From: Vicinamibacterales bacterium
GTDB taxonomy: Bacteria; Acidobacteriota; Vicinamibacteria; Vicinamibacterales; UBA8438
Assembly (NCBI GenBank): GCA_965263055.1
Contig: OZ253581.1
Location: 553,650-617,649 of the forward strand
Length of the DNA: 64,000 nucleotides
Direction of reading: 5' to 3'
In this document: piece by piece, positions 12,410-64,000 of the stretch
Position numbering within the stretch: position 1 is the stretch's first letter
Layout of the letters: the number at the start of each line of letters is the position of its first letter
Program-made: the position numbers and the translations under genes
Notes under the pieces: model-generated
The model's input: the letters and a program-made list of their open reading frames with translations, nothing else
What the model was told of the DNA's origin: nothing
The model's database searches: none

Positions 12410-12665
12410 CAAGAATTTCTCCGTTGCCAAGGTCCGGCCCGGGCACACGCGCCCCCCGGATGTACCGCGCCTATTGTCGCGCAAATCCGACGGCGGGCAA
12501 AACGTCCTTGCCGGCGCAGGCCGAATTGACGCCGCGCAGCCGTTTCGAACCGTCCCCTGTCGAGGACAGGCTCGTCCGCTAGCGAGACAGGCCACTGCCG
12601 CTGCCGCGCGCCGGGCGCCTCCGCAAGACCCCTCGTTCCGGGAACCCGCCGGTCGTGCACCGAAG

Positions 12666-12682
12666 TGGCACACGGTATGCAT
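12666..12682 (+). promoter_or_regulatory. Candidate sigma-54 (-24/-12) promoter
   Basis: TGGCACacggtaTGCAT has canonical GG-N10-GC spacing and lies about 45 nt upstream of the ATG at 12726. GACAGG / CCTGTC repeats lie 80-120 bp further upstream. Confidence 0.45.
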
Positions 12683-12725
12683 ATCTGCCGATTGTGAGTG
12701 CTCGATTGTCGGAAGGAGATACACC

Positions 12726-47110: not shown

Positions 47111-47468
47111 GGGGGCGACACGGCTTCGACGGGGGTCATGGAATCGTCGGATGCATGCCGAGCACCATCGACTCGTAAATCCGATGGAAAACCAAGTAAC
47201 TGCGGACACGCAGCTGCCTCTCGCTGCCTAGACGGTAGCGACGCCTCTTCCGATCCCGCCCGCGGGCCGGAAGCCAGGTGTCATATTAGCGGGCTGGCCA
47301 CCACGCGCGGCACCGACACGTGGCGGCGAGACGTCATCGGGGCTGGTTCCTCCGGCGGTTTCCGCCGCCCTTAGACGCCGGGGACGAGACAAACAAGGGC
47401 GGACACGCATGTAGAGTCCGACGGGTCTGGGTTCTCGGACGCGGGTTCGACTCCCGCCGCCTCCACCA
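47111..47468 (+). ncRNA. ssrA: tmRNA (SsrA)
   Basis: 5' GGGGGCGACACGGCUUCGACGGGG and 3' ...GGACGCGGGUUCGACUCCCGCCGCCUCCACCA. Acceptor stem with a G3:U70 pair. Internal tag ORF ...GAA AAC CAA GUA ACU GCG GAC ACG CAG CUG CCU CUC GCU GCC UAG gives (A)ENQVTADTQLPLAA*. Confidence 0.9.
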
Positions 47469-47538: not shown

Positions 47539-48066
47539 CTACAGTTGAGGTGATGCGGGATCCCCGCTGGGGAAGCCTGCCCGACCCGACCGACGGCGCC
47601 TCGACACCGGTCGTCCCGTCATGTGTTTGCGGATGGTGCTCGCGTGGCAGCCGGCCGCCACCGCCTGCTTGGCAATCTGGCCGGCGTACCACAGGTCGGA
47701 CATCTGCGGGCGCCGCTGCTTCAGCGCGCGGTAGGCCTGTTGCCAGCGCGCGTACCGCGCCTGCGAATAGAGCGTGCGAGCCTCGCGCCGCGTCGTGCTC
47801 GGTGTGTAGCGCGGGTCGGCGGCCGTCGCCGCATCGACGAGGTGGCGAATGGCGGCGGTGTCCAGGACGTAGGCGCCGCGATCGAAGTCAATCAGGTCCG
47901 CCAGCGCCACGGCCGTGTCCGCGACGACCAGCGCCACGTCCCCGTGCGTGCGCAGGCCCTGGTCCACGTGTGCCGAGGTCAGCGCGACCCGGTTGATGTC
48001 GCTGCGTTTGTCACAGACGATGAAGCGTGCCGCCTCGCGCGGCCCCGCGGGGATCGTCTGCAAGCG
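47539..48066 (-). pseudogene. Gene remnant / hypothetical protein with a C-terminal HTH-like tail
   Basis: Only the distal ~175 codons of the 237-aa track ORF look protein-like (...FIVCDKRSDINRVALTSAH...MSDLWYAGQIAKQAVAAGCHASTIRKHM). No clear start, and the upstream part is Arg/Cys-rich noise. Confidence 0.35.
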
Positions 48067-48208
48067 CGGTAATGTCGAGATCGGCCAGGACGCCGCGGGC
48101 ATGGAAATAGCGGGCCAGCAGCCGGTTCGGCATCTGCCGGAAGAAGTCGCGGGTGGCATAGTGGCGCGCCATCGACCCTCTGCGCGCCCGACCCGGGCCT
48201 CCCGGCAC
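48011..48208 (-). pseudogene. N-terminal fragment of an unrelated protein (about 38 credible codons), out of frame with the downstream remnant
   Basis: MARHYATRDFFRQMPNRLLARYFHARGVLADLDITAL reads like a genuine N-terminus. It then degenerates and stops. The neighbouring remnant is in a different frame. Confidence 0.3.
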
Positions 48209-48415
48209 ACCGCCGTGCGCCGCAGACGGCCGTGATCGGGCGCGGTCTGCATGGCGGGCGCACGTCGGGTGCCCTCGCGGTCGACGGTGCCTGCGCGTGC
48301 GGTCGACCGGCGCGAGCCCCCTACGGTCCTGAAGCCTCCGGCGAGTCCGCCCTCCTGCCGCGCGGTGGGCCGGCTCGCGTTCGGCCCGCCCCGTGCGGTC
48401 CCGAAGCCGCCCCGT

Positions 48416-51400
48416 CTACCAGCCCACCGTGCCCCGGCCGACGGCTCCGTTGCTTGCGCCGTCGACCAGCGGACTCTCGCGGCGCTGCGCGTCGATGCCC
48501 AGCTCGAAGGTCAGGCTCTCCCGGTTCAGCACCCCGAGACCGTAGCCGAGCCGGTAGTCCCGCCCGTGCTCGGACGTGCTGAAGCCGACCCGCGGCGTGC
48601 CGACGAAACGCCTGCCCATCGGCAGGCCGTAGCCGACCTCGCCATCGAGGCGGTTGCCCGACGCGACGCCGCCGGACGCCAGCCCCGCCATCGTCTGCCG
48701 GCCCCACAGCGCCTCGGCGCCGCTCGTCGCCTGCCCGCCCCACGACGGCGCCACCCGCGCCACAAAGCCCAGCGGCGTCGACGGCGTCGGGTTGTAGCTC
48801 AGCGACAGCGCCACGCCCCGCTCGGAGAACCCCTCGGCCTGGTGCAGCAGCAGCGTCCGCACGCGCACGTCCACCGCCAGCCCCGACGATGCATCCGACA
48901 CAATCAAGCCGGCGCCGACGTCCATGCCGGCGCCGGTCTCGGCGTCCCCGCCGTCGTGCCGCAGCCCCACCTCGACGCTCGGCGTAAGCGACAGCCGGCC
49001 GGCGAGCGTGAAGGCGCGCGAGCCTTCAAGCCCCGTCCGGAAGCGGGTCACCGCCGTGTCGGTCGCCTGCAGGCGCCCCGCCGGGCCGTCCACGCCGTCG
49101 ATCGACGTCCCGACCCACAGCGCATCGGCCTTGAACGCCAGCGCGAAGCCGCCCGCACCGCCAGCGACCAGCTCGCCCCGCGTCCCCGCCGCCGCCATCG
49201 CCATCGACAGGCCCGCCTCCAGGGCCGGACCGCCCTGCGGCGTCAGCAGCAGCCCGCCCGACCCGTAGCCGGCCACGCCCCACACCGTGACGCGGTCGGT
49301 CGCCTTGTAGCCGAGCCACGGGTACAGGCCCGTCACCGACGAGGCCACCTGGCCGCCGGCGACCCCGGTGTACTCGCCCAGGCCCCGGCTGTGCGACAGC
49401 GACAGGCCCGTCACCAGCGGCCCCGTCGCGTAGTCGGCCCCGACCATCGTCGTGCGCACGTCGCCGCCCAGCGACAGCGCGCCCTCGCGCCCGGAGAAGC
49501 GCGACCGCGCCCCGCGGCTCCAGAACGAGAGGATGCCGCCGTGGCCCGTCTCGCGACCCAGCTCGAAGGCCGAGCCGGTCAGCACGTCGCCGCCGCCGAG
49601 GCCCATCCGCACGAGTCCGCCGCCATTGAACTGGCTGTCCGGGCGGGACCCGCCGCCCAGCGGGCCGGCGACCATGCCCATCGGACCCGACGCCGCGGCC
49701 AGGCGCCCGTCGCCGGCCAGCCCCGACATCCCGAGCGGCGCCGTCCCGGTCGCCGACGCGCCGGACAAAGAACCGCCGGCGCCCGCGCCCATCGGCCCCG
49801 CGCCGGCCGCCCCGCCGAGCTGGCGCAGGAAGCTGAGCGCGATGTCGCGCTCCATGCCGCGCCGCAGCTCCCGGCCCGCGAACCGGCCCCGGAAGCCCGG
49901 CGCGCGCGGCGCCGCCAGCCGCTCCTCCACGTGCTCCACCACATGCACCGCCGCCGTCCGCCCGAACCGCGCCAGCAGCGCCCGCGGCATCGAATCGTGG
50001 TTCGCAATCGTCCCGGTCGCCTCGCCGTCGGCCAGCCGTCCCCCCGAGGGGTTGGACAGCCGCAGCGTCAGCGTCTCCTCGCCCTCGTCGTGGGCGTCGT
50101 CGAGCACCGCCACCTCGATCGTCTTCGACGACTCGCCCGCCCGGAACTTCAGCGTCCCGCTCGTGGCCGTATAGTCGTCGCCCGCGTGCGCGCTGCCGTC
50201 CGCCGTCGCGTAGTCCACCGTCAACGCGGCGCTCGCCGCGCGGCTGAGCGTGACGGCGAAGGCCAGCAGGGCGCCTGAGTTCTCGTCCACCCGCGCATCG
50301 GCCACCGCGATGCCCACCGGGCCGGCCACCGTCGCCGACAGCGCATGCGACAGCGGCCGGCCGTCGTCGGTGCAGATCGCCCCGCTCGCGTCGCAGTCCG
50401 TCGTCTCCGGCAGCCGGACCGTCACCGCCTCGTGCGAGTCCGGCTCGATGGTGATCTTCCACCGGTCGCGGCGGCCGTCGACCCGGCGCGCCTGTGTGAC
50501 CTCACCGCCCGTCACCGTGAACGACGCGTCGCGGACCGTCGTGTAGCTGATATTGATCCCCTCGCTGAACGCCACCCGGAAGCTGAACGACCCCGGGCCG
50601 CGGTGCTCTGCCGGCATGCCCTCGAAGCTCGCCGTCAGCGGCTCCGGTGCCGCGGCGACGGCATCGGTCGCCGCGCTGGTGAGGCGCTCCTCGTGGCCGG
50701 CGTCGTCGGTGAAGCTGACCCGGACCTGTAGCCGCGTGCCCTCGTCGGCCGCCACCGGCGTGTAGGTCGAGCGAGTCGCCCCGCCAATGTCGGCGCTCGT
50801 GCGGATCCACTGGTAGGCAAAACGCGCGGTGTCCAGCCCGTCGGCGTCGGCGATGCCCGACGTCGAGGCGGTCAGCGCCTCCCCGACCTGCGGCGTCCCG
50901 CCGATGGTCGGCGCACCCACGGCCGCCGTGTTGCTCTCCGGCTCGTCCGCCGGGCCGGCCACCGTCGCCGAGGGGCTGTTGCTCAGCCGCCGGCGGTTCT
51001 CGCCCCGGGTGCAGATCGCCCCGGAGACCTCGCATTCGCGCCCCGCCGGCAGCGTGATCGTCACGTCTCCGTCCGAGTCGGGCGCGACCGCGATCTCCCA
51101 CCGGTCGTGGCGCCCGTCCACTCCGCGCACCCCGGTCACGGCGCCCCCGCTCACCGTGAACGCATCGTCGCGCAGCGCCTGGTAGTCGATGCCGATGTCC
51201 TCGCTGAAGGCGACATGGAAGCGGAACGCGCGCTCGCCGTCATGCGCCTCCGGCACCCCCTCGAAGCTCGCCGTCAGCGGCTGGTCCTCCTGCGTCTGGC
51301 TCTCGGGACCCGGGCCGTTCACGATGGCCGACGCCCCGGTCGACAGGGCTCGGCCGTCCGAGGTGCAGACCGCGCCGTCCGCCTCGCACTCCGCCGCCGG

Positions 51401-54400
51401 GGCCAGCGTGATCGACAGCGCCTCGCGGCTGTCCGGCGCGACCGTGATCGACCACACGCCGCTCTCCCCGTCGACCCGGGCCGCGCCGGTCACGGCGCCC
51501 CCCGCCACCGTCAGGACGCGCGTCCGCATGGCCTCGGGCGTGACCGCGACCGCCTCGCTGAACGCGATGCGGAAGCTGAACGCGGTCTCCCCGTCGTGCG
51601 CCTCCGGCAGCTCCTCGAACGCCGCCGTCAGCGGATCGGCCGTGCGGCCGGGGGCGTTCTCCAACACCCGCACCGTCACCGTCGGGATCGGCCGGTCATA
51701 CGTCACCGCAACGGACGTGTGGGTCAGCGTCGCCGTCGCGCCGGCCGCCGATGCCGGGGCGTTCACCGTCACCGTCTGGCGCCGGAACCAGTTCTCCTTG
51801 GTGAACTGCAGCGTCGTCGGGGTCGCGACCACCTCGACCGTGTCCGAACTCACCGTCAACGTCGGATGGGGCGGGTTCACGTAGGCCGGCGTGTGCGTCA
51901 GGCGCACCTGATACGTCGTCGTGCCCCCCGCCGCGACCTCCAGGGTCGCGTCGCCCTCGCCGCCCGCCACCTGGTACCCTCTGCGGCCCTCCGGGTCCAC
52001 CCGCAGCTCCGTCAGCTTCGGCAGCGCCTCGAACTCGTCGTAGGGCAGCGAGCTCAGCGACGGGTTCTTCTGTAGTTCCAGTGTCTTCAGAGATTGCAGG
52101 TCGGAGAACACCCCGGCCGGCAGCGAGCTGAGCTGGTTGTTGTCCAGCTCCAGCGTTTCCAGCGCCGCCAGCCCGGAGAACACCCCGGCCGGCAGCTCGC
52201 CAAGCCCGGTCTCCCTCAGGTACAGCCGCTCGAGGTTCACCAGCCCCTCGAAGTCGTCGCTCTGCAGGCTCATCGTGAACGCCGACTCCGTGCTCGGGTT
52301 GCGGCCCAGGTCGAGCGACTGCAGCTTCGCCAGATGCTCCTCGGTCACCCCGGAGCAGTCGCCCTTGTAGCTGTGCCGGTTCTTCAGCAGCACCAGGATG
52401 CGGTCGCGGACGCGCGGCGTGCGGGCGCAGATGCCGCCGCGGTCCAGGTCGTCGTCGAGAATGGTCAGGGTCACGTCGCCGGGGTCCGTCACGCCCTCGA
52501 TGGACGCCGAGCCGGACACCGTCACGACGTCGGTTGGCTCAGGGACATCGTCGTTAACCAGCCTGATCGTCACCGTCCCGGTGCTCGCGGTCGCGTTCGC
52601 GGCAAAGCGCAGCTCCCGGTTCGTACTCAGCTCGAAGTCGTCGTCCGTCGCCGGGGCCACCGGACTCGCCGACACCGTCACCGTGAAGGCGGTCGCCGAG
52701 GCCGGCGACACCGTCGCCGACACCGTCACCGCGCCCGCGTCCGGGTCGCTCAGATGCAGCGTCACCGCCGGCGTCTCCGCGTTGGTGCTGACCGCGTCCG
52801 AGGGGTCCGACCACTCGCTGTCCGTCTCGCCGTTCACCGCCTGCACCCGCGCCTGATGGGGCGTGTCCGCCGTCAGCCCGGTGATCGTCGTCGTGGTCCC
52901 GGTGCCGCTGTGCGTGACGTTCTCCCAGTTGCCGCTCGTGCCCTCGCGGTACTCCACGGTGTAGCCGGTGATGGCCGGGCCGCCGTTGCGCCCCGGCTCG
53001 GTCCAGGTCACGTCCAGGCTGTCGGTCGTGCCCGAGGTCGCCGACACCGTCGGCTTCGCCGGTGTGTCCGGCTGCTCGTTTGCGTCCATCACCGTCACCG
53101 TGATGGTCTGGGTCCCCGTCTGCTCCCGGTCGCCCGTGCCACTGGTCGCCTGCACCACCACCAGATAGGCGTTGTCGGTGTTCGCGTCCTGCGGGTCCTC
53201 GTAGTCCGGCGCCGTCAGGAACGTCAGCACGCCGGAGTTGTTGATGGAGAACAGCGCCTGGTCCGCGCCGCCGCTGAGCGCATAGTCGGTGATGTCGTCA
53301 GTCGTGTCGCTGTCCTCCGCCTCCACCGTGCCCACCGCCGTCTGGTTCTCCGCCGGGTTGAAGGTCGTGCTCGAGGTGAACGCCGGCGCCGCGTTCGCGT
53401 CCGTCGCGCCGCTGCCCGAAGCGGACCAGCCGCCCGTGCCCTCGGCGTTCGTCGCCCGCACCTGCACCTGGTAGCTCGTGTCCTCCAGAAGCCCCGTGAG
53501 GATCGCCGTGAGGGCGGTGCCGATGTGGCTGCCGTCACTCCACGGCGCGCTCGTGCCCGCCCGGTACTGCACGTCGTAGTCCGTGATCTCCGGGCCGTCG
53601 TTGTCCGGCGCCGACCAGTTCACGTTCAGGCTCGTCACCGACGCCGGCGACACCGACGGCGCATCCGGCGCACCCGGCGCCTCGGTGTCGTCGTCCATCA
53701 CCGTCACCGTGATGGTCTGGGTCCCCGTCTGCTCCCGGTCGCCCGTGCCGCTGGTCGCCTGCACCACCACCACATAGGCGTTGTCGGTGTTCGCGTCCTG
53801 CGGGTCCTCGTAGTTGGGCGCCGCCTGGAACGTCAGCACGCCGGAGTTGTTGATGGAGAACAGCGCCTGGTCCGCGCCGCCGCTGAGCGCATAGTCGGTG
53901 ATGTCGTCAGTCGTGTCGCTGTCCTCCGCCTCCACCGTGCCCACCGCCGTCTGGTTCTCCGCCGGGGTGAAGGTCGTTGAAGAGGTGAACGACGGCGCGG
54001 CGTTGGCGTCCGTCGCGCCGCTGCCCGAAGCGGACCAGCCGCCCGTGCCCTCGGCGTTCGTCGCCCGCACCTGCACCTGGTAGCTCGTGTCCTCCTCAAG
54101 CCCCGTGAGGATCGCCGTGAGGGCGGTGCCGATGTGGCTCCCGTCACTCCACGGCGCGCTCGTGCCCGCCCGGTACTGCACGTCGTAGTCCGTGATTTCC
54201 GGGCCGGCGTTGTCCGGCGCCGACCAGTTCACGTTCAGGCTCGTCACCGACGCCGGCGACACCGACGGCGCATCCGGCGCACCCGGCGCCTCGGTGTCGT
54301 CGTCCATCACCGTCACCGTGATGGTCTGGGTCCCCGTCTGCTCCCGGTCGCCCGTGCCGCTGGTCGCCTGCACCACCACCACATAGGCGTTGTCGGTGTT

Positions 54401-57400
54401 CGCGTCCTGCGGGTCCTCGTAGTTGGGCGCCGCCTGGAACGTCAGCACGCCGGAGTTGTTGATGGAGAACAGCGCCTGGTCCGCGCCGCCGCTGAGCGCA
54501 TAGTCGGTGATGTCGTCAGTCGTGTCGCTGTCCTCCGCCTCCACCGTGCCCACCGCCGTCTGGTTCTCCGCCGGGTTGAAGGTCGTTGAAGAGGTGAACG
54601 ACGGCGCGGCGTTGGCGTCCGTCGCGCCGCTGCCCGAAGCGGACCAGCCGCCCGTGCCCTCGGCGTTCGTCGCCCGCACCTGCACCTGGTAGCTCGTGTC
54701 CTCCAGAAGCCCCGTGAGGATCGCCGTGAGGGCGGTGCCGATGTGGCTCCCGTCACTCCACGGCGCGCTCGTGCCCGCCCGGTACTGCACGTCGTAGTCC
54801 GTGATTTCCGGGCCGGCGTTGTCCGGCGCCGACCAGTTCACGTTCAGGCTCGTCACCGACGCCGGCGACACCGACGGCGCATCCGGCGCACCCGGCGCCT
54901 CGGTGTCGTCGTCCATCACCGTCACCGTGATGGTCTGGGTCCCCGTCTGCTCCCGGTCGCCCGTGCCGCTGGTCGCCTGCACCACCACCACATAGGCGTT
55001 GTCGGTGTTCGCGTCCTGCGGGTCCTCGTAGTTGGGCGCCGCCTGGAACGTCAGCACGCCGGAGTTGTTGATGGAGAACAGCGCCTGGTCCGCGCCGCCG
55101 CTGAGCGCGTAGCCGGTGATGTCGTCAGTCGTGTCGCTGTCCTCCGCCTCCACCGTGCCCACCGCCGTCTGGTTCTCCGCCGGGTTGAAGGTCGTGCTCG
55201 AGGTGAACGCCGGCGCCGCGTTCGCGTCCGTCGCGCCGCTGCCCGAAGCGGACCAGCCGCCCGTGCCCTCGGCGTTCGTCGCCCGCACCTGCACCTGGTA
55301 GCTCGTGTCCTCCAGAAGCCCCGTGAGGATCGCCGTGAGGGCGGTGCCGATGTGGCTGCCGTCACTCCACGGCCCGCTCGTGCCCGCCCGGTACTGCACG
55401 TCGTAGTCCGTGATCGCCGGGCCGTCGTTGTCCGGCGCCGACCAGGTCACCGTCAGGCTCGTCACCGACGCCGGCGACACCGACGGCGCATCCGGCGCGG
55501 CCGGCGCCTCGGTGTCGTCGTCCATCACCGTCACCGTGATGGTCTGGGTCCCCGTCTTCTCCCGGTCGCCCGTGCCACTGGTCGCCTGCACCACCACCAC
55601 ATAGGCGTTGTCGGTGTTCGCGTCCTGCGGGTTCTCGTAGTTGGGCGCCGCCTGGAACGTCAGCACGCCGGAGTTGTTGATGGAGAACAGCGCCTGGTCC
55701 GCGCCGCCGCTGAGCGCGTAGCCGGTGATGTCGTCAGTCGTGTCGCTGTCCTCCGCCTCCACCGTGCCCACCGCCGTCTGGTTCTCCGCCGGGTTGAAGG
55801 TCGTGCTCGAGGTGAACGCCGGCGCCGCGTTCGCGTCCGTCGCGCCGCTGCCCGAAGCGGACCAGCCGCCCGTGCCCTCGGCGTTCGTCGCCCGCACCTG
55901 CACCTGGTAGCTCGTGTCCTCCAGAAGCCCCGTGAGGATCGCCGTGAGGGCGGTGCCGATGTGGCTGCCGTCACTCCACGGCGCGCTCGTGCCCGCCCGG
56001 TACTGCACGTCGTAGTCCGTGATCGCCGGGCCGGCGTTGTCCGGCGCCGACCAGGTCACCGTCAGGCTCGTCACCGACGCCGGCGACACCGACGGCGCAT
56101 CCGGCGCGGCCGGCGCCTCGGTGTCGTCGTCCATCACCCTCACCGTGATGGTCTGGGTCCCCGTCTGCTCCCGGTCGCCCGTGCCACTGGTCGCCTGCAC
56201 CACCACCACATAGGCGTTGTCGGTGTTCGCGTCCTGCGGGTTCTCGTAGTTGGGCGCCGCCTGGAACGTCAGCACGCCGGAGTTGTTGATGGAGAACAGC
56301 GCCTGGTCCGCGCCGCCGCTGAGCGCATAGTCGGTCACCTCGTCGTCCGCGTCGCTGTCCGACGCCCGCACCGTGCCCACCGCCGTCTGGTTCTCCGCCG
56401 GGTTGAAGGTCGTTGAAGAGGTGAACGACGGCGCGGCGTTGGCGTCCGTCGCGCCGCTGCCCGAAGCGGACCAGCCGCCCGTGCCCTCGGCGTTCGTCGC
56501 CCGCACCTGCACCTGGTAGCTGGTGTCCTCCAGAAGCCCCGTGAGGATCGCCGTGAGGGCGGTGCCGATGTGGCTCCCGTCACTCCACGCCCCGCTCGTG
56601 CCCGCCCGGTACTGCACGTCGTAGTCCGTGATCGCCGGGCCGTCGTTGTCCGGCGCCGACCAGTTCACGTTCAGGCTCGTCACCGACGCCGGCGACACCG
56701 ACGGCGCATCCGGCGCGGCCGGCGCCTCGGTGTCGTCGTCCATCACCGTCACCGTGATGGTCTGGGTCCCCGTCTGCTCCCGGTCGCCCGTGCCGCTGGT
56801 CGCCTGCACCACCACCACATAGGCGTTGTCGGTGTTCGCGTCCTGCGGGTCCTCGTAGTTGGGCGCCGCCTGGAACGTCAGCACGCCGGAGTTGTTGATG
56901 GAGAACAGCGCCTGGTCCGCGCCGCCGCTGAGCGCGTAGCCGGTGATGTCGTCAGTCGTGTCGCTGTCCTCCGCCTCCACCGTGCCCACCGCCGTCTGGT
57001 TCTCCGCCGGGTTGAACGTCGTGCTCGAGGTGAACGAGGGCGCCGCGTTCGCGTCCGTCGCGCCGCTGCCCGAAGCGGACCAGCCGCCCGTGCCCTCGGC
57101 GTTCGTCGCCCGCACCTGCACCTGGTAGCTCGTGTCCTCCAGAAGCCCCGTGAGGATCGCCGTAAGGGCGGTGCCGATGTGGCTCCCGTCACTCCACGCC
57201 CCGCTCGTGCCCGCCCGGTACTGCACGTCGTAGTCCGTGATCTCCGGGCCGGCGTTGTCCGGCGCCGACCAGGTCACCGTCAGGCTCGTCACCGACGCCG
57301 GCGACACCGACGGCGCATCCGGCGCACCCGGCGCCTCGGTGTCGTCGTCCCTCACCGTCACCGTGATGGTCTGGGTCCCCGTCTGCTCCCGGTCGCCCGT

Positions 57401-60400
57401 GCCGCTGGTCGCCTGCACCACCACCACATAGGCGTTGTCGGTGTTCGCGTCCTGCGGGTCCTCGTAGTTGGGCGCCGCCTGGAACGTCAGCACGCCGGAG
57501 TTGTTGATGGAGAACAGCGCCTGGTCCGCGCCGCCGCTGAGCGCGTAGCCGGTGATGGCGTCGCCCGTGTCGCTGTCCGACGCCACCACCGTGCCCACCG
57601 CCGTCTGGTTCTCCGCCGGGTTGAAGGTCGTGCTCGAGGTGAACGCCGGCGCGGCGTTCGCGTCCGTCGCGCCGCTGCCCGAAGCGGACCAGCCGCCCGT
57701 GCCCTCGGCGTTCGTCGCCCGCACCTGCACCTGGTAGCTGGTGTCCTCCAGAAGCCCCGTGAGGATCGCCGTAAGGGCGGTGCCGATGTGGCTCCCGTCA
57801 CTCCACGCCCCGCTCGTGCCCGCCCGGTACTGCACGTCGTAGTCCGTGATCTCCGGGCCGTCGTTGTCCGGCGCCAGCCAGGTCACCGTCAGGCTCGTCA
57901 CCGACGCCGGCGACACCGACGGCGCATCCGGCGCGGCCGGCGCCTCGGTGTCGTCGTCCATCACCGTCACCGTGATGGTCTGGGTCGCCGTCTGCTCCCG
58001 GTCGCCCGTGCCGCTGGTCGCCTGCACCACCACCAGATAGGCGTTGTCGGTGCTCGCGTCCTGCGGGTCCTCGTAGTTGGGCGCCGTCAGGAACGTCAGC
58101 GCGCCCGACGTCGAGCCGATAGAGAACAGCGCCTGGTCCGCGCCGCCGCTGAGCGCGTAGTCGGTGATGGCGTCCCCGTCGAAGTCCCCCGCCCGGACCG
58201 TCCCCGCCGCGGTCTGGTTCTCCGCCGGGGTGAACGTGTCTGACGACGTAAACGCCGGCGCCGCGTTCGGGAAAACGTCGTTGTCGACGATCGTGCCGAT
58301 GGCGGAGTTGTCCTCGAGCCTCGCGTTGCTCGCGCTCCCCAGGGTCACCTCGAAGGTCTCGTCGCTCTCGACGAGTTCGTCGTCGACCACGCCGACCTGA
58401 AGCTGCGCCGTCGTCTGCCCCGGCGGGAACGTCACAAACCCATTCTGCGGGAAACTGGTGAAGTCCTCCTCTTCCGCCGTCTGACCGATGTTCAGGAACG
58501 TACCCCAGCCCACCGTCACCGTCCTGCCGCTCGCCGGCGTCAGCGTCACCGTGAACTCCACGTTGGACTCCTCGGGCGCCGATATATCGGCGATGATCAG
58601 CGCCGGCCGCGCGTCGTCGTCGGTGATCGTGCCCGTCGCGGTGGTCGCATCCGCTGCCAGCGTCGCGTTCGACGACGGGCTCGACAGCGCCACCGTGAAG
58701 GTCTCGTCGTTCTCGTCGAGGGCGTCCTCGGCCGTCGCCACTGTGAACGTCGCCGTCGTCTCGCCCTTGGGGACGGTCACCGACCCCGTCGTCGATTCGA
58801 GATCCGCGGCCGCCGCCTTCTCCTCGTCGCCCTCGATCGTCGACGCCGTCCAGGTCGCCGTCACGTCGTCCGTGGCCGCCGCCGACAGCGTCACGGTGAA
58901 CTCCACCGGAGCGCCCTCGGTCGCCGCCGCGTCCGCCACGCCCAGCGTCGGCGGGTCGTCGTTGTCGGTGATCGTGCCCGTCGCGGTCGCCTCTCCGAGG
59001 GTCGCGTTCGACGGACTCGACAGGGTCAGCGTGAAGGTCTCGGCGTCGGGCTCGTCGAGGGTGTCGTCTTCCGTCGCCACCGCGACGGTCGCCGTCGTGT
59101 CGCCGGGCATGACGGTCAGCGTGTCGCTCGCCGCCGTGAAGTCCGCGGGCGAGGTGGCGGTGTCGCCGGTCGTCGCCCAGTTCACCGACACCTCCCGGCC
59201 GCTCGCCGCCGACAGCGTCACCGGGAACTCCACCGGAGCGCCCTCGGCCGCCGTCGCATCGCCCACGCTCACCGTCGGCGGATCGTCGTCGTCCTCGATG
59301 GTGATGGTCGAGCGCGTCTTGTCGCCCGCCGTCGCGTTCTCGAAGTCGTAGATTTCCAGCGTGAAGGTCTCGTCGGGCTCGTCGAGATCGTCGATGCGGA
59401 TGGCATCTCCCTCAGAATAGTCGACGGTATCGCCGGCTGCGATTGCGTGTATTCCGCTAAGCAGGGACGAATTCAGGTCCAGGTCCGCATCCGTCGCCGT
59501 GTCGCCGGCCACAGCCACCCGCCGGACCTTGAACCGCACCCGCTTCTCGCTTGCCTCCGACAGCGTCACGCGGAACGGGAATCCGCTATCCACCAAATTG
59601 TCCGGGTCCCAAAGGCCTTCGATCACGGTCTGGTCCTCGACGCTGATGGTCGGCGGATCGTCGTTGTCGGTGATCGTGCCCGTCGCGGTCGCGTCCGACG
59701 CCAGCGTCGCGTTCGCCGACGGGCTCGACAGCGTCAGCGTGAAGGTATCGTTGTCCTCGTCGGTGGTGTCGTCCACCGTCGGCACCGTGATCGTCCCCGT
59801 CGTCTCGTTCGCCGAGACGGTCGCCGTCCCCGTCGTCGACTCGAAATCCGCCGTCTCCGCGCTGTCGCCGGTCTCGATCGACGCCGTCCAGGTCACCGTC
59901 ACGTCGGTCGTGGCCGCTTCCGACAGCGTCACCGTGAAGGCCACGCCATCGCTCTCGGCCGCCGCCGCGTTCGCCACGCTCAGCGTCGGCAGCACGTCGT
60001 TGTCCACGATCGTCACCGTCGCCTCGGACGGGGTTCCCGCCGTCACGCCGGCCGGCAGCGTCCCGAAGGAGAGCGACACGCTCTCGCCGGCGTCGACATC
60101 CGCGTCATCGGTCGCCGCCAGCGTGAAGGTCTGTTCCGTGTCGGTCGCGCCGAAGGTCACGCTCTCCGGCACCCCCGACCAGTCCGCCCCGGTCTCGCCC
60201 GGCGGCGTCGCGCCGCCCGCGCCCGCCGCCGAAACCGGCACCGTCACCTCGCGCCCCGGCGCGGCGTCGAGCTGCACCGTCACCGCCACCGTGCCGCCCT
60301 CGTCCACCGAGTACGACCCCGCCCCGAACGACACCGCCGCCGTATCGTTGTCCACGATCGTCAGCGTCGCCCGCACCGCATCGTGGGCGCCGTGCAGCGT

Positions 60401-63400
60401 GTGGATCAGCACAAACGCCGAGGTGGGGCTCATCTCCAGCACCACCGTCTCGTCGTCCTCCACCACTTCGTCGTCGTGGATCACGACGTCATGGGTCCAC
60501 ACGGCCTGGTAGCGCGGCTGCCCGTCCACCGTCGCCGGCGTGAAGTCCGACACCTGAAAGCGCGCCGTCACCGACACCGCATCGTAGTCAGTGCCTCCCG
60601 TCGCCGTGCCGCCGACGCGCGCCAGTTGCACCGCCAGTGCCGTCGCCGGCGGCGCGTTCTCCGCCGTCGTCGCCGTCACCCTGACCGTCACCGGGCCCGC
60701 GTCCTCGGCCACCGTCGCCGGAACCGCCAGCACGAAGTCCACCGGCACGTCGTTGTCGCTCACCGCCACCGTCGCCGCGCCCGGCTCGCCCACCGTGTAG
60801 CCGGTGTCGGTGCCCAGCGTCACCGTCACCGTCCCGGCGTCGTCGTCCGTGTCGTCGTCGTCGGTCTCCAGCGCCAGCGGGGCCGTGGCCGCATCCGCCG
60901 CGAAGGTCACCGACGACGGCACCGCGCTCGCATCCTTCAACACCGAGCCGGTCTCGCTCACCGCCACCGCCACCGTCAGCGCTGCCGTCGTCGACCCGGT
61001 GCGCGACAGCGTGAACGCCGCATCCGTGCCCTCCGTCACCGTCTCGCCGCCGGTCGCCGCCGCCACCGTCACGGTCGGCAGCCCCTCCGCCCGCGTCACC
61101 GTCACCGTGTAGGTCTCCGTCGTCGTGCCGTCTTCGGCCGTCACCCGCACCGTGATGACGTTCGCGCCCACGTCCAGCGGCACCTGGTGGCCGGCCGCCG
61201 TGTCCGCGTCGGCGATCGGATTGCCGTCCGAGTCCAGATACGCCACCGAGGCGCCGTCGTCGCTCTTCGTCGCCGTGAACGTCAGCGTCTCGACGTCGTT
61301 GGCCACCATCGCCGTGTAGGTGGTGGTGTCCGAGCCAAAGGTCAGCAGGTCCGTACCGCCGCCGCTCACGGCGAGCCCGCTCAACGTCGCGTCGGTGGAG
61401 GCGGCGCCCACGCGCACCGTGGCCGTGTCGGTATCGGTGTAGGTACTCCCGCCCTTCCCCGTGACCGTCAGCGTGAACACCAGGTCGCCGTCCGACGAAG
61501 GCGCGGTAAAGCTCGCGCTATCGGTGTCGGCGCCGCTGAGCGTGACCGTCGCGCCGCTCGTCTTCGTCCATTGGTAGGTGACGTTCGTACCCCAGGCGCC
61601 GCCGCTGGCGCTGCCGTCGAGGGTCACCGCCGCGCCCTGCGCCACCCGCTGGTCTCCGCCCGCATTCGCCGTCGGCACGAACTCGTCGGTGCCGGGGTTG
61701 CCTTCCAGTTTGAGTGTCGCGAGCGCGGTGAGGTCGTCGAAAACGCCCGCCGGCAGGCTGATCAGGGAGTTGTAGTGCAGCCCGAGGTACGTCAGCGCGG
61801 TGAGTTCGTCGAAAACGCCCGCCGGAAGGTTGCTCAGGGAGTTGTTGCCCAGGCCGAGGCCCGTCAGCGCGGTGAGGCCGTCGAAAACGCCCGCTGGCAG
61901 GTCGCTCAGGGAGTTGTCGTTCAGGTCGAGTGTCGTGAGCGCGGTGAGGCCGTCGAAAACGCCCGCCGGAAGGTTGCTCAGGGAGTTGCGGTTCAGGCGG
62001 AGTTCCGTGAGCGCGGTGAGGTCGTCGAAAACGCCCGCCGGAAGGTTGCTCAGGGAGTTGCCACCCAAGCCGAGCAACGTGAGCGCGGTGAGGTCGTCGA
62101 AAACGCCCGCCGGCAGGTCGCTCAGGGAGTTGTCCCCCAGGTAGAGTGTCGTGAGCGCGGTGAGGTCGTCGAAAACGCCCGCCGGAAGGTTGCTCAGGGA
62201 GTTGTTGTACAGGTGGAGTTCCGTGAGCGCGGTGAGGCCGTCGAAAATGCCCGCCGGCAGGTTGCTCAGGGAGTTGTTGTCCAGGTCGAGGCGCGTGAGC
62301 GCGGTGAGGCCGTCAAAGTCGCCCTCCTTCAGGTCGAGGCGCGTGAGCGCGGTGAGGCCGTCAAAGTCGCCCTCCTTCAGCGACGTGATGCCCGCGTCTG
62401 ACAAATCCAAAAACCCGATTGCCGCCAGATGCGCAGCCGTCACGTTGGCGCAGGCGCTGACCCCGGACACCGCCGCCACGATGGCGTCGCGCACCTGCTC
62501 GGTGCGCTCGCACACGCCGGGAAGGGCCGCTCGGGTCACCGTGACGGTGTAGGTCTTCACGGTGCTGCCGTCTTCGGCAGTCACCTTGACCTTGATGACG
62601 TTCTCGCCGAGAGCAAGCGAGGCGTCGAGCGCGTCCGTGTTCGTATCGGCGTCCGTGATGGCGGCGTCGCTGCTATCGAGAAACTCGACCGTCGCAGCGT
62701 CGGCGGTCGTCGAGGGCGTCACCGTGATCGTCGAGATCGAGTTTTCCACCAACGCCGTGTAGTCCGTGGTCGCCGCGGCGAACGTCGGCGCCAGCGTCCC
62801 GTCGCTCAAGCTCAGAGCCCTCAGCGTGGCGTCGGTGGAGGCGGCGCCCACGCGCACCGTGGCCGTGTCGGTATCGGTGTAGGTACTCCCGCCCTTCCCC
62901 GTGACCGTCAGCGTGAACACCAGGTCGCCGTCCGACGAAGGCGCGGTAAAGCTCGCGCTATCGGTGTCGGCGCCGCTGAGCGTGACCGTCGCGCCGCTCG
63001 TCTTCGTCCATTGGTAGGTGACGTTCGTACCCCAGGCGCCGCCGCTGGCGCTGCCGTCGAGAGTCACCGCCGCGCCCTGCGCTACCCGCTGGTCTTCGCC
63101 CGCATTCGCCGTCGGCACGAAGTCGTCGGTGCCGGGGTTGTTGTCCAGAGAGAGATCCGTGAGCGCGGTGAGATTCTCGAAAACGCCCGCCGGCAGGCCA
63201 CTCAGGGAGTTGCCGCCCAGGGTGAGGTCCGTGAGCGCGGTGAGGTTGTCGAACACCCCGGCGGAAAGCGTGTCCAGAGAGTTGGTGTGCAGATACAGAT
63301 ACTTCAACGAGGTCAGCTCGTTGAACACCCCGGCGGGAAGCATGGTCAGCCCGTTGTGAGTCAGACTCAGCGCCGTCAGCGAGGTCAGCTCGTCGAACAC

Positions 63401-64000
63401 CCCGGCGGGAAGCGTGGTCAGAGAGTTGGAGTGCAGATACAGCAATGTCAGCGCGGTCAGCTCGTCGAACACGTCGTCGGGAAGCGTGGTCAGAGAGTTC
63501 CTGCCCAGCCACAGCAATGTCAGCGCGGTCAGCTCGTCGAACACGTCGTCGGGAAGCATGGTCAGAGAGTTGTTCTGCAGATCCAGCGACGTCAGCCTGG
63601 TCAGCCCGTCGAAATCCCCCGCCGCGAGAGCGGAGATGCCCTTGCGATTCAGATCCAGCGAGCCGGTGATGGCGGCGAGATGGGTGTCGGTGACAAGGGC
63701 GCAGTTATCGACGCCGGAGATTCTGTCAAGGATCGCGTCGCGCACCTGCACGGTGCGCTCGCAGACCGGCGTCGGGGCTCCCGGCTCGGCGGCAAGGACC
63801 TCCAGCGGCAGGTCGGAGGATTTCCTCAAGGCATAGCCCAAATGTTTCGAGGGCAGCCCCGGCAGGGTCCCGATGTCCGCCGTGACGGCGGAGGCCGAGC
63901 CCGCGCTCCGGGTCACCGTCACCGAGTCGCTGTGGACCATGCCGACGGGAATCGTGAGCGTGGTGGCCCCGCCGTCGATCTCGCCGTTGAAGACGCTTAC
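48416..64000 (-). CDS. Giant surface protein (>5,190 aa, N-terminus beyond the window) with a modular LRR / PKD / cadherin-like / Calx-beta / FN3 passenger and a C-terminal autotransporter-type beta-barrel
   Basis: One uninterrupted ORF, open to the window edge. The domain calls below were read from sequence motifs (see findings). The C-terminal ~520 aa are Gly/aromatic-rich with alternating strands and end in ...GRGTVGW. Confidence 0.85.
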   Translation of the reverse strand, partial: VSVFNGEIDGGATTLTIPVGMVHSDSVTVTRSAGSASAVTADIGTLPGLPSKHLGYALRKSSDLPLEVLAAEPGAPTPVCERTVQVRDAILDRISGVDNCALVTDTHLAAITGSLDLNRKGISALAAGDFDGLTRLTSLDLQNNSLTMLPDDVFDELTALTLLWLGRNSLTTLPDDVFDELTALTLLYLHSNSLTTLPAGVFDELTSLTALSLTHNGLTMLPAGVFNELTSLKYLYLHTNSLDTLSAGVFDNLTALTDLTLGGNSLSGLPAGVFENLTALTDLSLDNNPGTDDFVPTANAGEDQRVAQGAAVTLDGSASGGAWGTNVTYQWTKTSGATVTLSGADTDSASFTAPSSDGDLVFTLTVTGKGGSTYTDTDTATVRVGAASTDATLRALSLSDGTLAPTFAAATTDYTALVENSISTITVTPSTTADAATVEFLDSSDAAITDADTNTDALDASLALGENVIKVKVTAEDGSTVKTYTVTVTRAALPGVCERTEQVRDAIVAAVSGVSACANVTAAHLAAIGFLDLSDAGITSLKEGDFDGLTALTRLDLKEGDFDGLTALTRLDLDNNSLSNLPAGIFDGLTALTELHLYNNSLSNLPAGVFDDLTALTTLYLGDNSLSDLPAGVFDDLTALTLLGLGGNSLSNLPAGVFDDLTALTELRLNRNSLSNLPAGVFDGLTALTTLDLNDNSLSDLPAGVFDGLTALTGLGLGNNSLSNLPAGVFDELTALTYLGLHYNSLISLPAGVFDDLTALATLKLEGNPGTDEFVPTANAGGDQRVAQGAAVTLDGSASGGAWGTNVTYQWTKTSGATVTLSGADTDSASFTAPSSDGDLVFTLTVTGKGGSTYTDTDTATVRVGAASTDATLSGLAVSGGGTDLLTFGSDTTTYTAMVANDVETLTFTATKSDDGASVAYLDSDGNPIADADTAAGHQVPLDVGANVITVRVTAEDGTTTETYTVTVTRAEGLPTVTVAAATGGETVTEGTDAAFTLSRTGSTTAALTVAVAVSETGSVLKDASAVPSSVTFAADAATAPLALETDDDDTDDDAGTVTVTLGTDTGYTVGEPGAATVAVSDNDVPVDFVLAVPATVAEDAGPVTVRVTATTAENAPPATALAVQLARVGGTATGGTDYDAVSVTARFQVSDFTPATVDGQPRYQAVWTHDVVIHDDEVVEDDETVVLEMSPTSAFVLIHTLHGAHDAVRATLTIVDNDTAAVSFGAGSYSVDEGGTVAVTVQLDAAPGREVTVPVSAAGAGGATPPGETGADWSGVPESVTFGATDTEQTFTLAATDDADVDAGESVSLSFGTLPAGVTAGTPSEATVTIVDNDVLPTLSVANAAAAESDGVAFTVTLSEAATTDVTVTWTASIETGDSAETADFESTTGTATVSANETTGTITVPTVDDTTDEDNDTFTLTLSSPSANATLASDATATGTITDNDDPPTISVEDQTVIEGLWDPDNLVDSGFPFRVTLSEASEKRVRFKVRRVAVAGDTATDADLDLNSSLLSGIHAIAAGDTVDYSEGDAIRIDDLDEPDETFTLEIYDFENATAGDKTRSTITIEDDDDPPTVSVGDATAAEGAPVEFPVTLSAASGREVSVNWATTGDTATSPADFTAASDTLTVMPGDTTATVAVATEDDTLDEPDAETFTLTLSSPSNATLGEATATGTITDNDDPPTLGVADAAATEGAPVEFTVTLSAAATDDVTATWTASTIEGDEEKAAAADLESTTGSVTVPKGETTATFTVATAEDALDENDETFTVALSSPSSNATLAADATTATGTITDDDARPALIIADISAPEESNVEFTVTLTPASGRTVTVGWGTFLNIGQTAEEEDFTSFPQNGFVTFPPGQTTAQLQVGVVDDELVESDETFEVTLGSASNARLEDNSAIGTIVDNDVFPNAAPAFTSSDTFTPAENQTAAGTVRAGDFDGDAITDYALSGGADQALFSIGSTSGALTFLTAPNYEDPQDASTDNAYLVVVQATSGTGDREQTATQTITVTVMDDDTEAPAAPDAPSVSPASVTSLTVTWLAPDNDGPEITDYDVQYRAGTSGAWSDGSHIGTALTAILTGLLEDTSYQVQVRATNAEGTGGWSASGSGATDANAAPAFTSSTTFNPAENQTAVGTVVASDSDTGDAITGYALSGGADQALFSINNSGVLTFQAAPNYEDPQDANTDNAYVVVVQATSGTGDREQTGTQTITVTVRDDDTEAPGAPDAPSVSPASVTSLTVTWSAPDNAGPEITDYDVQYRAGTSGAWSDGSHIGTALTAILTGLLEDTSYQVQVRATNAEGTGGWSASGSGATDANAAPSFTSSTTFNPAENQTAVGTVEAEDSDTTDDITGYALSGGADQALFSINNSGVLTFQAAPNYEDPQDANTDNAYVVVVQATSGTGDREQTGTQTITVTVMDDDTEAPAAPDAPSVSPASVTSLNVNWSAPDNDGPAITDYDVQYRAGTSGAWSDGSHIGTALTAILTGLLEDTSYQVQVRATNAEGTGGWSASGSGATDANAAPSFTSSTTFNPAENQTAVGTVRASDSDADDEVTDYALSGGADQALFSINNSGVLTFQAAPNYENPQDANTDNAYVVVVQATSGTGDREQTGTQTITVRVMDDDTEAPAAPDAPSVSPASVTSLTVTWSAPDNAGPAITDYDVQYRAGTSAPWSDGSHIGTALTAILTGLLEDTSYQVQVRATNAEGTGGWSASGSGATDANAAPAFTSSTTFNPAENQTAVGTVEAEDSDTTDDITGYALSGGADQALFSINNSGVLTFQAAPNYENPQDANTDNAYVVVVQATSGTGDREKTGTQTITVTVMDDDTEAPAAPDAPSVSPASVTSLTVTWSAPDNDGPAITDYDVQYRAGTSGPWSDGSHIGTALTAILTGLLEDTSYQVQVRATNAEGTGGWSASGSGATDANAAPAFTSSTTFNPAENQTAVGTVEAEDSDTTDDITGYALSGGADQALFSINNSGVLTFQAAPNYEDPQDANTDNAYVVVVQATSGTGDREQTGTQTITVTVMDDDTEAPGAPDAPSVSPASVTSLNVNWSAPDNAGPEITDYDVQYRAGTSAPWSDGSHIGTALTAILTGLLEDTSYQVQVRATNAEGTGGWSASGSGATDANAAPSFTSSTTFNPAENQTAVGTVEAEDSDTTDDITDYALSGGADQALFSINNSGVLTFQAAPNYEDPQDANTDNAYVVVVQATSGTGDREQTGTQTITVTVMDDDTEAPGAPDAPSVSPASVTSLNVNWSAPDNAGPEITDYDVQYRAGTSAPWSDGSHIGTALTAILTGLEEDTSYQVQVRATNAEGTGGWSASGSGATDANAAPSFTSSTTFTPAENQTAVGTVEAEDSDTTDDITDYALSGGADQALFSINNSGVLTFQAAPNYEDPQDANTDNAYVVVVQATSGTGDREQTGTQTITVTVMDDDTEAPGAPDAPSVSPASVTSLNVNWSAPDNDGPEITDYDVQYRAGTSAPWSDGSHIGTALTAILTGLLEDTSYQVQVRATNAEGTGGWSASGSGATDANAAPAFTSSTTFNPAENQTAVGTVEAEDSDTTDDITDYALSGGADQALFSINNSGVLTFLTAPDYEDPQDANTDNAYLVVVQATSGTGDREQTGTQTITVTVMDANEQPDTPAKPTVSATSGTTDSLDVTWTEPGRNGGPAITGYTVEYREGTSGNWENVTHSGTGTTTTITGLTADTPHQARVQAVNGETDSEWSDPSDAVSTNAETPAVTLHLSDPDAGAVTVSATVSPASATAFTVTVSASPVAPATDDDFELSTNRELRFAANATASTGTVTIRLVNDDVPEPTDVVTVSGSASIEGVTDPGDVTLTILDDDLDRGGICARTPRVRDRILVLLKNRHSYKGDCSGVTEEHLAKLQSLDLGRNPSTESAFTMSLQSDDFEGLVNLERLYLRETGLGELPAGVFSGLAALETLELDNNQLSSLPAGVFSDLQSLKTLELQKNPSLSSLPYDEFEALPKLTELRVDPEGRRGYQVAGGEGDATLEVAAGGTTTYQVRLTHTPAYVNPPHPTLTVSSDTVEVVATPTTLQFTKENWFRRQTVTVNAPASAAGATATLTHTSVAVTYDRPIPTVTVRVLENAPGRTADPLTAAFEELPEAHDGETAFSFRIAFSEAVAVTPEAMRTRVLTVAGGAVTGAARVDGESGVWSITVAPDSREALSITLAPAAECEADGAVCTSDGRALSTGASAIVNGPGPESQTQEDQPLTASFEGVPEAHDGERAFRFHVAFSEDIGIDYQALRDDAFTVSGGAVTGVRGVDGRHDRWEIAVAPDSDGDVTITLPAGRECEVSGAICTRGENRRRLSNSPSATVAGPADEPESNTAAVGAPTIGGTPQVGEALTASTSGIADADGLDTARFAYQWIRTSADIGGATRSTYTPVAADEGTRLQVRVSFTDDAGHEERLTSAATDAVAAAPEPLTASFEGMPAEHRGPGSFSFRVAFSEGINISYTTVRDASFTVTGGEVTQARRVDGRRDRWKITIEPDSHEAVTVRLPETTDCDASGAICTDDGRPLSHALSATVAGPVGIAVADARVDENSGALLAFAVTLSRAASAALTVDYATADGSAHAGDDYTATSGTLKFRAGESSKTIEVAVLDDAHDEGEETLTLRLSNPSGGRLADGEATGTIANHDSMPRALLARFGRTAAVHVVEHVEERLAAPRAPGFRGRFAGRELRRGMERDIALSFLRQLGGAAGAGPMGAGAGGSLSGASATGTAPLGMSGLAGDGRLAAASGPMGMVAGPLGGGSRPDSQFNGGGLVRMGLGGGDVLTGSAFELGRETGHGGILSFWSRGARSRFSGREGALSLGGDVRTTMVGADYATGPLVTGLSLSHSRGLGEYTGVAGGQVASSVTGLYPWLGYKATDRVTVWGVAGYGSGGLLLTPQGGPALEAGLSMAMAAAGTRGELVAGGAGGFALAFKADALWVGTSIDGVDGPAGRLQATDTAVTRFRTGLEGSRAFTLAGRLSLTPSVEVGLRHDGGDAETGAGMDVGAGLIVSDASSGLAVDVRVRTLLLHQAEGFSERGVALSLSYNPTPSTPLGFVARVAPSWGGQATSGAEALWGRQTMAGLASGGVASGNRLDGEVGYGLPMGRRFVGTPRVGFSTSEHGRDYRLGYGLGVLNRESLTFELGIDAQRRESPLVDGASNGAVGRGTVGW
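52795..58270 (-). repeat. Nine tandem 609-bp units (203 aa: cadherin-like plus FN3) inside the giant gene
   Basis: Exact 609-nt periodicity of the antisense ORF coordinates (53224, 53833, 54442, 55051, 55660, 56878, 57487). There are nine NAAP(A/S)FTSS...WSASGSGAT protein repeats. The inner copies are near identical at the DNA level. Confidence 0.85.
61390..61700 (-). repeat. About 310-bp segment (PKD-like domain coding) nearly identical to 62830-63140, at an offset of exactly 1,440 bp
   Basis: Sequence lines 61381-61620 and 62821-63060 are identical block for block from about the 10th base onward. Divergence starts after about 61620/63060. Confidence 0.8.
62283..62378 (-). repeat. Perfect 48-bp tandem duplication (2 x 16 aa, KEGDFDGLTALTRLDL) inside LRR block 2
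   Basis: AGGTCGAGGCGCGTGAGCGCGGTGAGGCCGTCAAAGTCGCCCTCCTTC occurs twice back to back. The protein reads LKEGDFDGLTALTRLDLKEGDFDGLTALTRLDL. Confidence 0.8.

Follow-up and report, generated by a model that had tools for sequence, protein, structure and literature searches.

A cadherin–FN3 array within a giant open reading frame

The window, meaning the whole stretch of 64,000 nucleotides analysed here (contig OZ253581.1 of a Vicinamibacterales bacterium), carries on its minus strand a giant open reading frame (ORF) of 5,174 codons (48416..63940), the middle of which is a tandem array of nine units, each composed of a cadherin domain and an FN3 domain. The frame is still open at position 64000; the ATG at 63940 is not necessarily the true start, and the N-terminus lies beyond the end of the window. 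A repeat search placed the starts of the units exactly 609 nt apart over approximately 53.08–58.25 kb, an array that Tandem Repeats Finder missed with its maximum period of 500. The units are numbered u1 to u9 from the N-terminal side (Table 1), and every one opens with the motif NAAP[AS]FTSS, at residues 1892 + 203n of the giant ORF. A preliminary description of this DNA, made from the letters alone, had counted nine units at 609-nt spacing and had assigned them a cadherin-like and an FN3 part, and both points were borne out: Pfam recognises Cadherin (PF00028; 146.9 bits versus a gathering cut-off of 28.8, over seven stretches) and then fn3 (PF00041; 310.7 bits versus a cut-off of 25) in each unit, with u9 itself extended to 615 nt by two extra codons in its FN3 domain.

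The same description held that the first and last units are diverged and the inner ones nearly identical. The latter is correct, u2–u8 being 94.7–98.9% identical to each other at the DNA level (7–32 differences per 609 nt), but each edge unit has diverged over one half only. Relative to the consensus, the divergence of u1 is confined to the initial ~185 nt (codons 1–62), and u1 is 609 nt long solely through two compensating 3-nt indels; the divergence of u9 is confined to the part from ~nt 315 (codon 105) onward.

Modelled with AlphaFold, a single unit consists of two beta-sandwiches, with a predicted local distance difference test score (pLDDT) of 96.5. The solved structures that match it best in Foldseek are Ig–FN3 and FN3–FN3 tandems (NCAM, contactins, titin, neogenin), the titin Fn3 match having a template modelling (TM) score of 0.84 when normalised by target length; the cadherin-23 EC12–13 tandem ranks 45th among the solved-structure matches. 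Putative Ca2+ motifs (DSD, DANAAPxF and MDDDTEAP) can be read in the sequence at the expected places, and the junctions between domains may be stiffened by Ca2+.

Outside the array, the order of Pfam domains from the N-terminal side is leucine-rich repeats (LRR), PKD, Cadherin-like, LRR, PKD, Cadherin-like and several Calx-beta domains; the nine Cadherin–FN3 units follow, then LRR, three copies of a domain without annotation, Calx-beta and an uncharacterised C-terminal domain. The N-terminal types are LRR_8 arrays and K319L-type PKD. Here there is a second layer of repetition, in which a super-module of LRR, PKD and Cadherin-like domains is duplicated 1,440 nt apart with 96% identity (61359–61658 versus 62799–63098), the 72-nt LRR units within it being 64–89% identical. 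At 62282–62380, inside an LRR, there is also a perfect tandem duplication of 48 nt (16 residues), two copies of LKEGDFDGLTALTRLD, which looks like the product of very recent slippage or duplication. The three copies of the unannotated domain, about 110 residues each, follow the pattern PLTASFEG.PE.HDG...F.F...FSE...C...G.ICT, with conserved cysteines.

The C-terminal domain of about 530 residues runs from a helical stretch through a linker rich in Gly to a region in which long strands are predicted, ending in ...GTVGW. It has more than 1,500 metagenomic relatives but, beyond Calx-beta, no match in Pfam (E <= 1), NCBIfam or the Protein Data Bank (PDB; single sequence and profile), and an AlphaFold model made from 33 close homologues is unusable (pLDDT 35). 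The giant protein and three intact homologues from other genomes (described below) all terminate in Trp, and a Sec-type signal peptide stands at the start of one homologue (L013). Because the chains end in Trp and a Sec-type signal peptide is present in this homologue, surface display with anchoring through the putative C-terminal domain is plausible, and the C-terminal residues may represent an undescribed family of outer-membrane anchors.

Variation among the units and their relatives in other genomes

The array is variable at 41 codons (29 amino-acid-changing, 12 silent) and 55 nucleotide columns. Every alternative state listed in the preliminary description is present, but the list was incomplete; the changes beyond it include A/S5, N/T13, Q/K92, T/R101, M/R103 and S/L131. 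That the differences are concentrated at a handful of positions finds little support, as clustering is not significant either by the densest 15-codon window (7 variable residues, permutation P = 0.10) or by the longest invariant run (permutation P = 0.19).

What had been said about reassortment of the alternative states between units proved right. Among u2–u8 there are 26 biallelic informative sites in 13 partitions. By the four-gamete test, 208 of the 325 pairs of sites are incompatible, and at least 9 recombination events are required within 609 nt (Hudson–Kaplan minimum, Rm). Adjacent informative sites are more compatible than shuffled ones, whether all sites are used (0.41 versus 0.64, P = 0.001) or sites of the same codon are collapsed (0.37 versus 0.64, P = 0.008), and because neighbours are more compatible, short haplotype blocks exist, so that a random distribution of variant sites with no shared blocks is not what is seen. 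Intragenic recombination, proposed earlier in the form of unequal crossover or gene conversion, fits the four-gamete test, the Rm value and the clustering of units.

In a scan of one genome per species, the unit was found in 48 loci. The closest four loci are all on complete chromosomes, namely those labelled as Vicinamibacterales (L011, OZ253576; 94.9% nucleotide identity over 5.1 kb), as Candidatus Rariloculus in the Gammaproteobacteria (L013, OZ253579; 92.5% over 3.8 kb), as Micropepsaceae, an alphaproteobacterial family (L014, OZ252020; 92.6% over 3.9 kb), and as Candidatus Entotheonella (L012, OZ244252; 90.8% over 1.7 kb). Units from Dehalococcoidia and Latescibacterota have 60–74% amino-acid identity. 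The intact homologous ORFs of L011, L013 and L014 comprise 5,102, 4,936 and 4,801 codons, respectively. High identity does not extend beyond the Calx-beta domains and the array: the relatives have a different N-terminal LRR region and C-terminal domain, or lack them. The window has its own mark of lineage in its RNase Y, all named relatives of which (73–76% identity) are proteins of Acidobacteria or Acidobacteriota metagenome-assembled genomes (MAGs).

The surroundings of the relatives differ. In the Micropepsaceae chromosome, the gene has 70–72% guanine plus cytosine versus 55–56% in the flank, and it adjoins a P4-type integrase and an IS21 IstB (19-1128 and 1463-2224). In Entotheonella, an ORF with RTX repeats (12203-13597) lies downstream of the array, which suggests that the same repeat module is carried on a different secretion chassis. 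A 2.18-Mb contig labelled Rhodobacterales (ERZ25072854 ctg60405, to which both L010 and L036 belong) has pieces of Cadherin–FN3 and Calx-beta genes with several transposases and a resolvase lying between them, and these pieces appear to be remnants of the same module split by insertion sequences. Fragmented gene calls in databases were rejected as evidence of pseudogenes, the intact 5,102-codon gene of L011 being listed also as a 747-residue product, and frame breaks were therefore assessed directly on the DNA. With the gammaproteobacterial locus, exact matches reach 288 nt; since the unit contains long invariant stretches, such runs are likely, and they were not taken by themselves to prove that transfer was very recent.

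The variants of the window array are for the most part present in these relatives. Foreign arrays have, at the homologous position, 49 of its 57 minor alleles, whereas an alternative base picked arbitrarily is found there in 128 of 1,770 cases (7.2%; odds ratio 79, P = 2e-44), and 43 of the 57 are shared when the comparison is limited to three loci labelled as other phyla. The change of LLED to LEED, which takes two nucleotides (CTG to GAG), recurs in L011, L013 and L014, as do the combinations RDDD, REKT, LNVNW, TEAPGAP and DN(D/A)GP(E/A).

Mean nucleotide differences are 3.2% among the inner units of the window, 3.8% between these and the inner units of L011, and 4.2% between the window and the gammaproteobacterial unit. 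Synonymous divergence (dS) among the units of the window array is 0.047; measured against L011 it is 0.051 and against L013 0.053, and comparisons between arrays overall give 0.05–0.08. In a neighbour-joining tree of units, the first units of different genomes group together, as do the last units, and the inner units group only partly by genome. The diverged half-units at the edges have their orthologues in the edge half-units of other genomes' arrays; u1 has 17–20 differences to the first units of L011 and L014 versus 43 to its own neighbour. The nearest relative of each inner unit is always in its own array, at 7–22 differences versus 14–28 to the closest foreign unit.

Homologous arrays differ in length. 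Units of the close type number nine in the window, seven in L011, five in L014, and three each in L012 and L013; a related array with a period of 612 nt (L008) has about eight or more, and one array of Latescibacterota has at least 15 in a run. The expectation that copy number varies is upheld by these counts and by sister strains, in which the locus is altered, shortened or replaced. The giant gene adjoins a transfer-messenger RNA (tmRNA) gene, and sister contigs are 99.4–99.9% identical to the window in the flanks; divergence begins at the 3′ end of the tmRNA gene, beyond which the cargo is different, so that this 3′ end is likely to be an island boundary. Between the two genes is an ORF of 237 codons, inside which, at position 47959, the window is without ~135 bp present in all sister contigs, and at this position identity to the sister strains falls from ~99.9% to ~98%. 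One sister locus (L061) has a 98%-identical gene with an array that is 95% identical and a frame break. In another (L060/L007) the units are fewer and have diverged further, the frame is broken many times, and a tyrosine recombinase lies at the far end; L062 has only a short remnant and a tyrosine recombinase; and L059, L063 and L066 have a different giant gene at the syntenic locus. This arrangement suggests that the gene may reside in an integrative island targeted to the tmRNA gene.

Table 1. Features of the giant gene and its tmRNA-side flank, in window coordinates. The first base of each unit on the minus strand is the higher of its two coordinates.
Feature	Coordinates	Strand	Remarks
tmRNA gene	47111..47468	+	tag ADTQLPLAA; adjoins the giant gene
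237-codon ORF	47539..48252	-	between the giant gene and the tmRNA gene; no Pfam match
Giant ORF	48416..64000	-	at least 5,174 codons
C-terminal domain	48416..50002	-	~530 residues; putative outer-membrane anchor
Last Calx-beta	50003..50320	-	Pfam
Three copies of ~110-residue domain	50369..51636	-	65–73% nucleotide identity; no Pfam match
LRR block	51998..52273	-	immediately C-terminal of the array
Array	52781..58267	-	units u1–u9
Highly similar tract	~53081..58078	-	~8.2 periods; u1 codon ~63 to u9 codon ~104
u9	52781–53395	-	615 nt
u8	53396–54004	-	
u7	54005–54613	-	
u6	54614–55222	-	
u5	55223–55831	-	
u4	55832–56440	-	
u3	56441–57049	-	
u2	57050–57658	-	
u1	57659–58267	-	
Calx-beta-rich region	58268..60970	-	directly N-terminal of the array; in the segment 92–95% identical in nucleotides to L011, L013 and L014
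LRR arrays	61622–62413 and 63134–63637	-	72-nt period; each followed by PKD and Cadherin-like

Explanations for the mosaic

The array is probably (at a rough probability of 0.7) a repeat region of variable length at the centre of a giant multidomain protein of the adhesin type, encoded in an Acidobacteriota chromosome. Repeats that are ~97% identical in DNA would recombine with each other by unequal crossover and by gene conversion of short tracts, and such events would alter the number of copies and shuffle a limited set of alternative residues, while the half-units at the edges, which are without a partner on one side, would remain diverged. Since the minor alleles recur in foreign arrays and dS within the array equals that between genomes, the mosaic is likely to result from the reshuffling of pre-existing variants that are shared horizontally. 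Most of the alternative states would then not have been created here; rather, a pool of unit variants would travel with a module of Calx-beta and repeated Cadherin–FN3 domains, which would move by horizontal transfer between unrelated bacteria and be plugged into different gene backbones, within strain-variable regions flanked by integrases. The mobility of the module might accordingly be mediated by integrases, and the protein might serve as a stalk or in multivalent adhesion. The bacteria that exchange the module are probably symbionts residing together in sponges, judging from the mix of taxa and from contigs in the style of the Sanger sponge notes (metaMDBG, HiFi).

Several points weigh against this explanation. 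The copy number and the exact mosaic of this array are those given by the assembly, and the recombination statistics come from 7–9 units with 20–26 informative sites. Some of the shared single-base states could owe something to mutation recurring at permissive sites, and the taxon labels of the other MAGs are those given by their submitters. The unit has no relatives among viral contigs (IMG/VR), for which reason phage was also set aside as the vehicle of transfer, and no second copy of the tmRNA 3′ end, as expected of an att repeat, was detected in the available sequence by exact and 11–13-mer searches. Neither the N-terminus of the giant protein nor a possible signal peptide falls within the window, and the C-terminal anchor, with its poor model, is matched by sequence in neither Pfam nor PDB.

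A more far-reaching possibility, tentative and on balance doubtful, is a cassette pool at the level of the whole community, in which co-resident phyla would repeatedly exchange pieces of the module and the array would be a reshuffled sample of variants kept up by the host-associated community and not by the lineage. It is raised by the equality of synonymous divergence within the array and between phyla. If true, it would make the array a recombination "landing pad" for incoming DNA and not only a stalk of variable length.

The preliminary description also named the array as a likely site of assembly error, and a metagenome assembler might have collapsed, expanded or chimerised the reads of co-occurring strains. 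Several strains do occur together in single samples, sister contigs L003 and L008 break off within the gene or shortly before it, with two long-read contigs ending inside it, the short-read contigs L004–L006 reach no further than window positions 47.2–47.7 kb, and related arrays show spacings of 610 or 611 nt and frame breaks. However, the frame of the window is intact over 15.5 kb and across all nine units, which are spaced by exactly 609 nt, homologues of 4,801–5,102 codons with a mosaic of the same kind are intact on independent complete chromosomes, and an artefact would not produce alleles common to genomes labelled as other phyla; an origin of the mosaic in assembly is therefore improbable. 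The irregular spacings and frame switches of L008 (2016-5685), L061 (1413-1425) and L007 (4700-10800) mean either that the gene is truly decaying in sister strains or that the assembler made consensus errors in repeats. The locus is flagged as one where metagenome assemblies and gene calls are unreliable.

Concerted evolution of a purely local kind was the explanation implicit in the preliminary description: recent amplification in the lineage, point mutations in single units, and their spread by gene conversion. It would account for inner units that are 94.7–98.9% identical between diverged edges and for the finding that each inner unit has its nearest relative within its own array, and in L008 such homogeneity is tight (0.8% mean nucleotide difference within the array versus 4–8% to other arrays). 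If the variants had arisen in the window array, however, they should not pre-exist in foreign arrays, and 86% of the minor alleles do, including the multi-nucleotide codon states AGC/TCA, GCC/GGT, ACG/AAC and CTG/GAG; nor is local homogenisation the cause of the near-identity, as dS within the array is no lower than between genomes. Local homogenisation in the window array is real but weak, and purely local concerted evolution, now very improbable, is largely refuted.

The ratio of nonsynonymous to synonymous divergence (dN/dS, Nei–Gojobori) across units is 0.62 overall, which gives no evidence for the antigenic variation that had been suspected, and 0.18 in codons 161–203. The variable residues lie at columns that are variable throughout the family (median entropy 1.78 versus 1.19 bits, P = 9e-4) and are not enriched in loops, 13 of 29 being in strands, which equals the background. 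The variation thus resembles relaxed constraint at permissive positions and does not amount to a proven antigenic hot spot. Programmed diversification serving antigenic or ligand variation, by a diversity-generating retroelement, by conversion from silent cassettes or by strong positive selection on binding loops, is highly unlikely, for although dN/dS reaches 1.32 near the cadherin DXD loop (codons 20–40) and the alternatives T/N127, T/N129, D/A136 and E/A139 sit on the B strand and BC loop of FN3, the local excess rests on very few sites, and the overall ratio, the background frequency in strands and the permissive columns all stand against it. The array was likewise rejected as the target of a diversity-generating retroelement, no reverse transcriptase being among the called genes that flank the locus in sister contigs and the variants, which involve all four bases, not being specific for adenine.

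Comparison with known systems

Giant adhesins of the repeats-in-toxin (RTX) type, exported by type I secretion systems (T1SS), such as LapA, SiiE and MpIBP, are proteins of several thousand residues in which near-identical, Ca2+-binding Ig-like domains act as extenders. The window protein resembles them in its size and its long runs of near-identical domains, and its Entotheonella homologue has RTX repeats downstream of the array. The window protein cannot be placed among them, as it has no match to the RTX nonapeptide (HemolysinCabind), and its last domain, unlike theirs, is rich in strands and closes with Trp; its route of export or anchoring is likely to differ from theirs. Type Va autotransporters offer another parallel, with a very large passenger and a strand-rich C-terminus that ends in an aromatic residue, and with the Sec signal seen in one homologue. 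This assignment was also rejected, because the last 800 residues do not match the beta-domain PF03797 even at E = 1, and a search of PDB by sequence found no solved-structure relative of the C-terminus.

Genes encoding cadherin, FN3 and eukaryote-like repeat (ELR) domains are over-represented in MAGs associated with sponges and are laterally transferred among them (Robbins et al. 2021, PMC8163846). The window protein shares with these eukaryote-like proteins of sponge symbionts its cadherin, FN3 and LRR domains, its occurrence in taxa typical of high-microbial-abundance (HMA) sponges, and lateral transfer. That study is a census of gene families, in which arrays of near-identical units, polymorphism shared at the level of units, and the context of loci do not appear.

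The closest parallel is to surface proteins whose length varies through highly identical tandem domains, known as periscope proteins (Whelan et al. 2021, PMC8201768). Like these and other fibrillar adhesins (SasG E–G5, Rib, Sgo_0707 SHIRT), the window array consists of folded tandem domains with very high identity in DNA, and the number of repeats differs between its homologues and between strains; the two-domain unit parallels the E–G5 repeat of SasG, and candidate ligand-binding domains (LRR and PKD) lie N-terminal of the array, as in that class. By the folded, highly identical tandem domains and variable repeat number read from its sequence, the array is a putative adhesin of the periscope type. 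In contrast to periscope proteins, the host is a MAG of the diderm Acidobacteriota where theirs are Gram-positive pathogens, an LPXTG motif is absent, the putative anchor being the uncharacterised C-terminal domain, and further domains lie C-terminal of the array. Another difference is that the reassorting polymorphism of the window units is common to several phyla, which has not been described for that class. Variation in length by means of identical tandem domains is therefore known; what is new is that the units and their alternative residues are found nearly unchanged across labelled phyla. If this sharing holds, the array would be a concrete example, at the level of sequence, of attachment modules circulating in a host-associated community, and repeat arrays would be a tractable marker of recent gene flow in that community.

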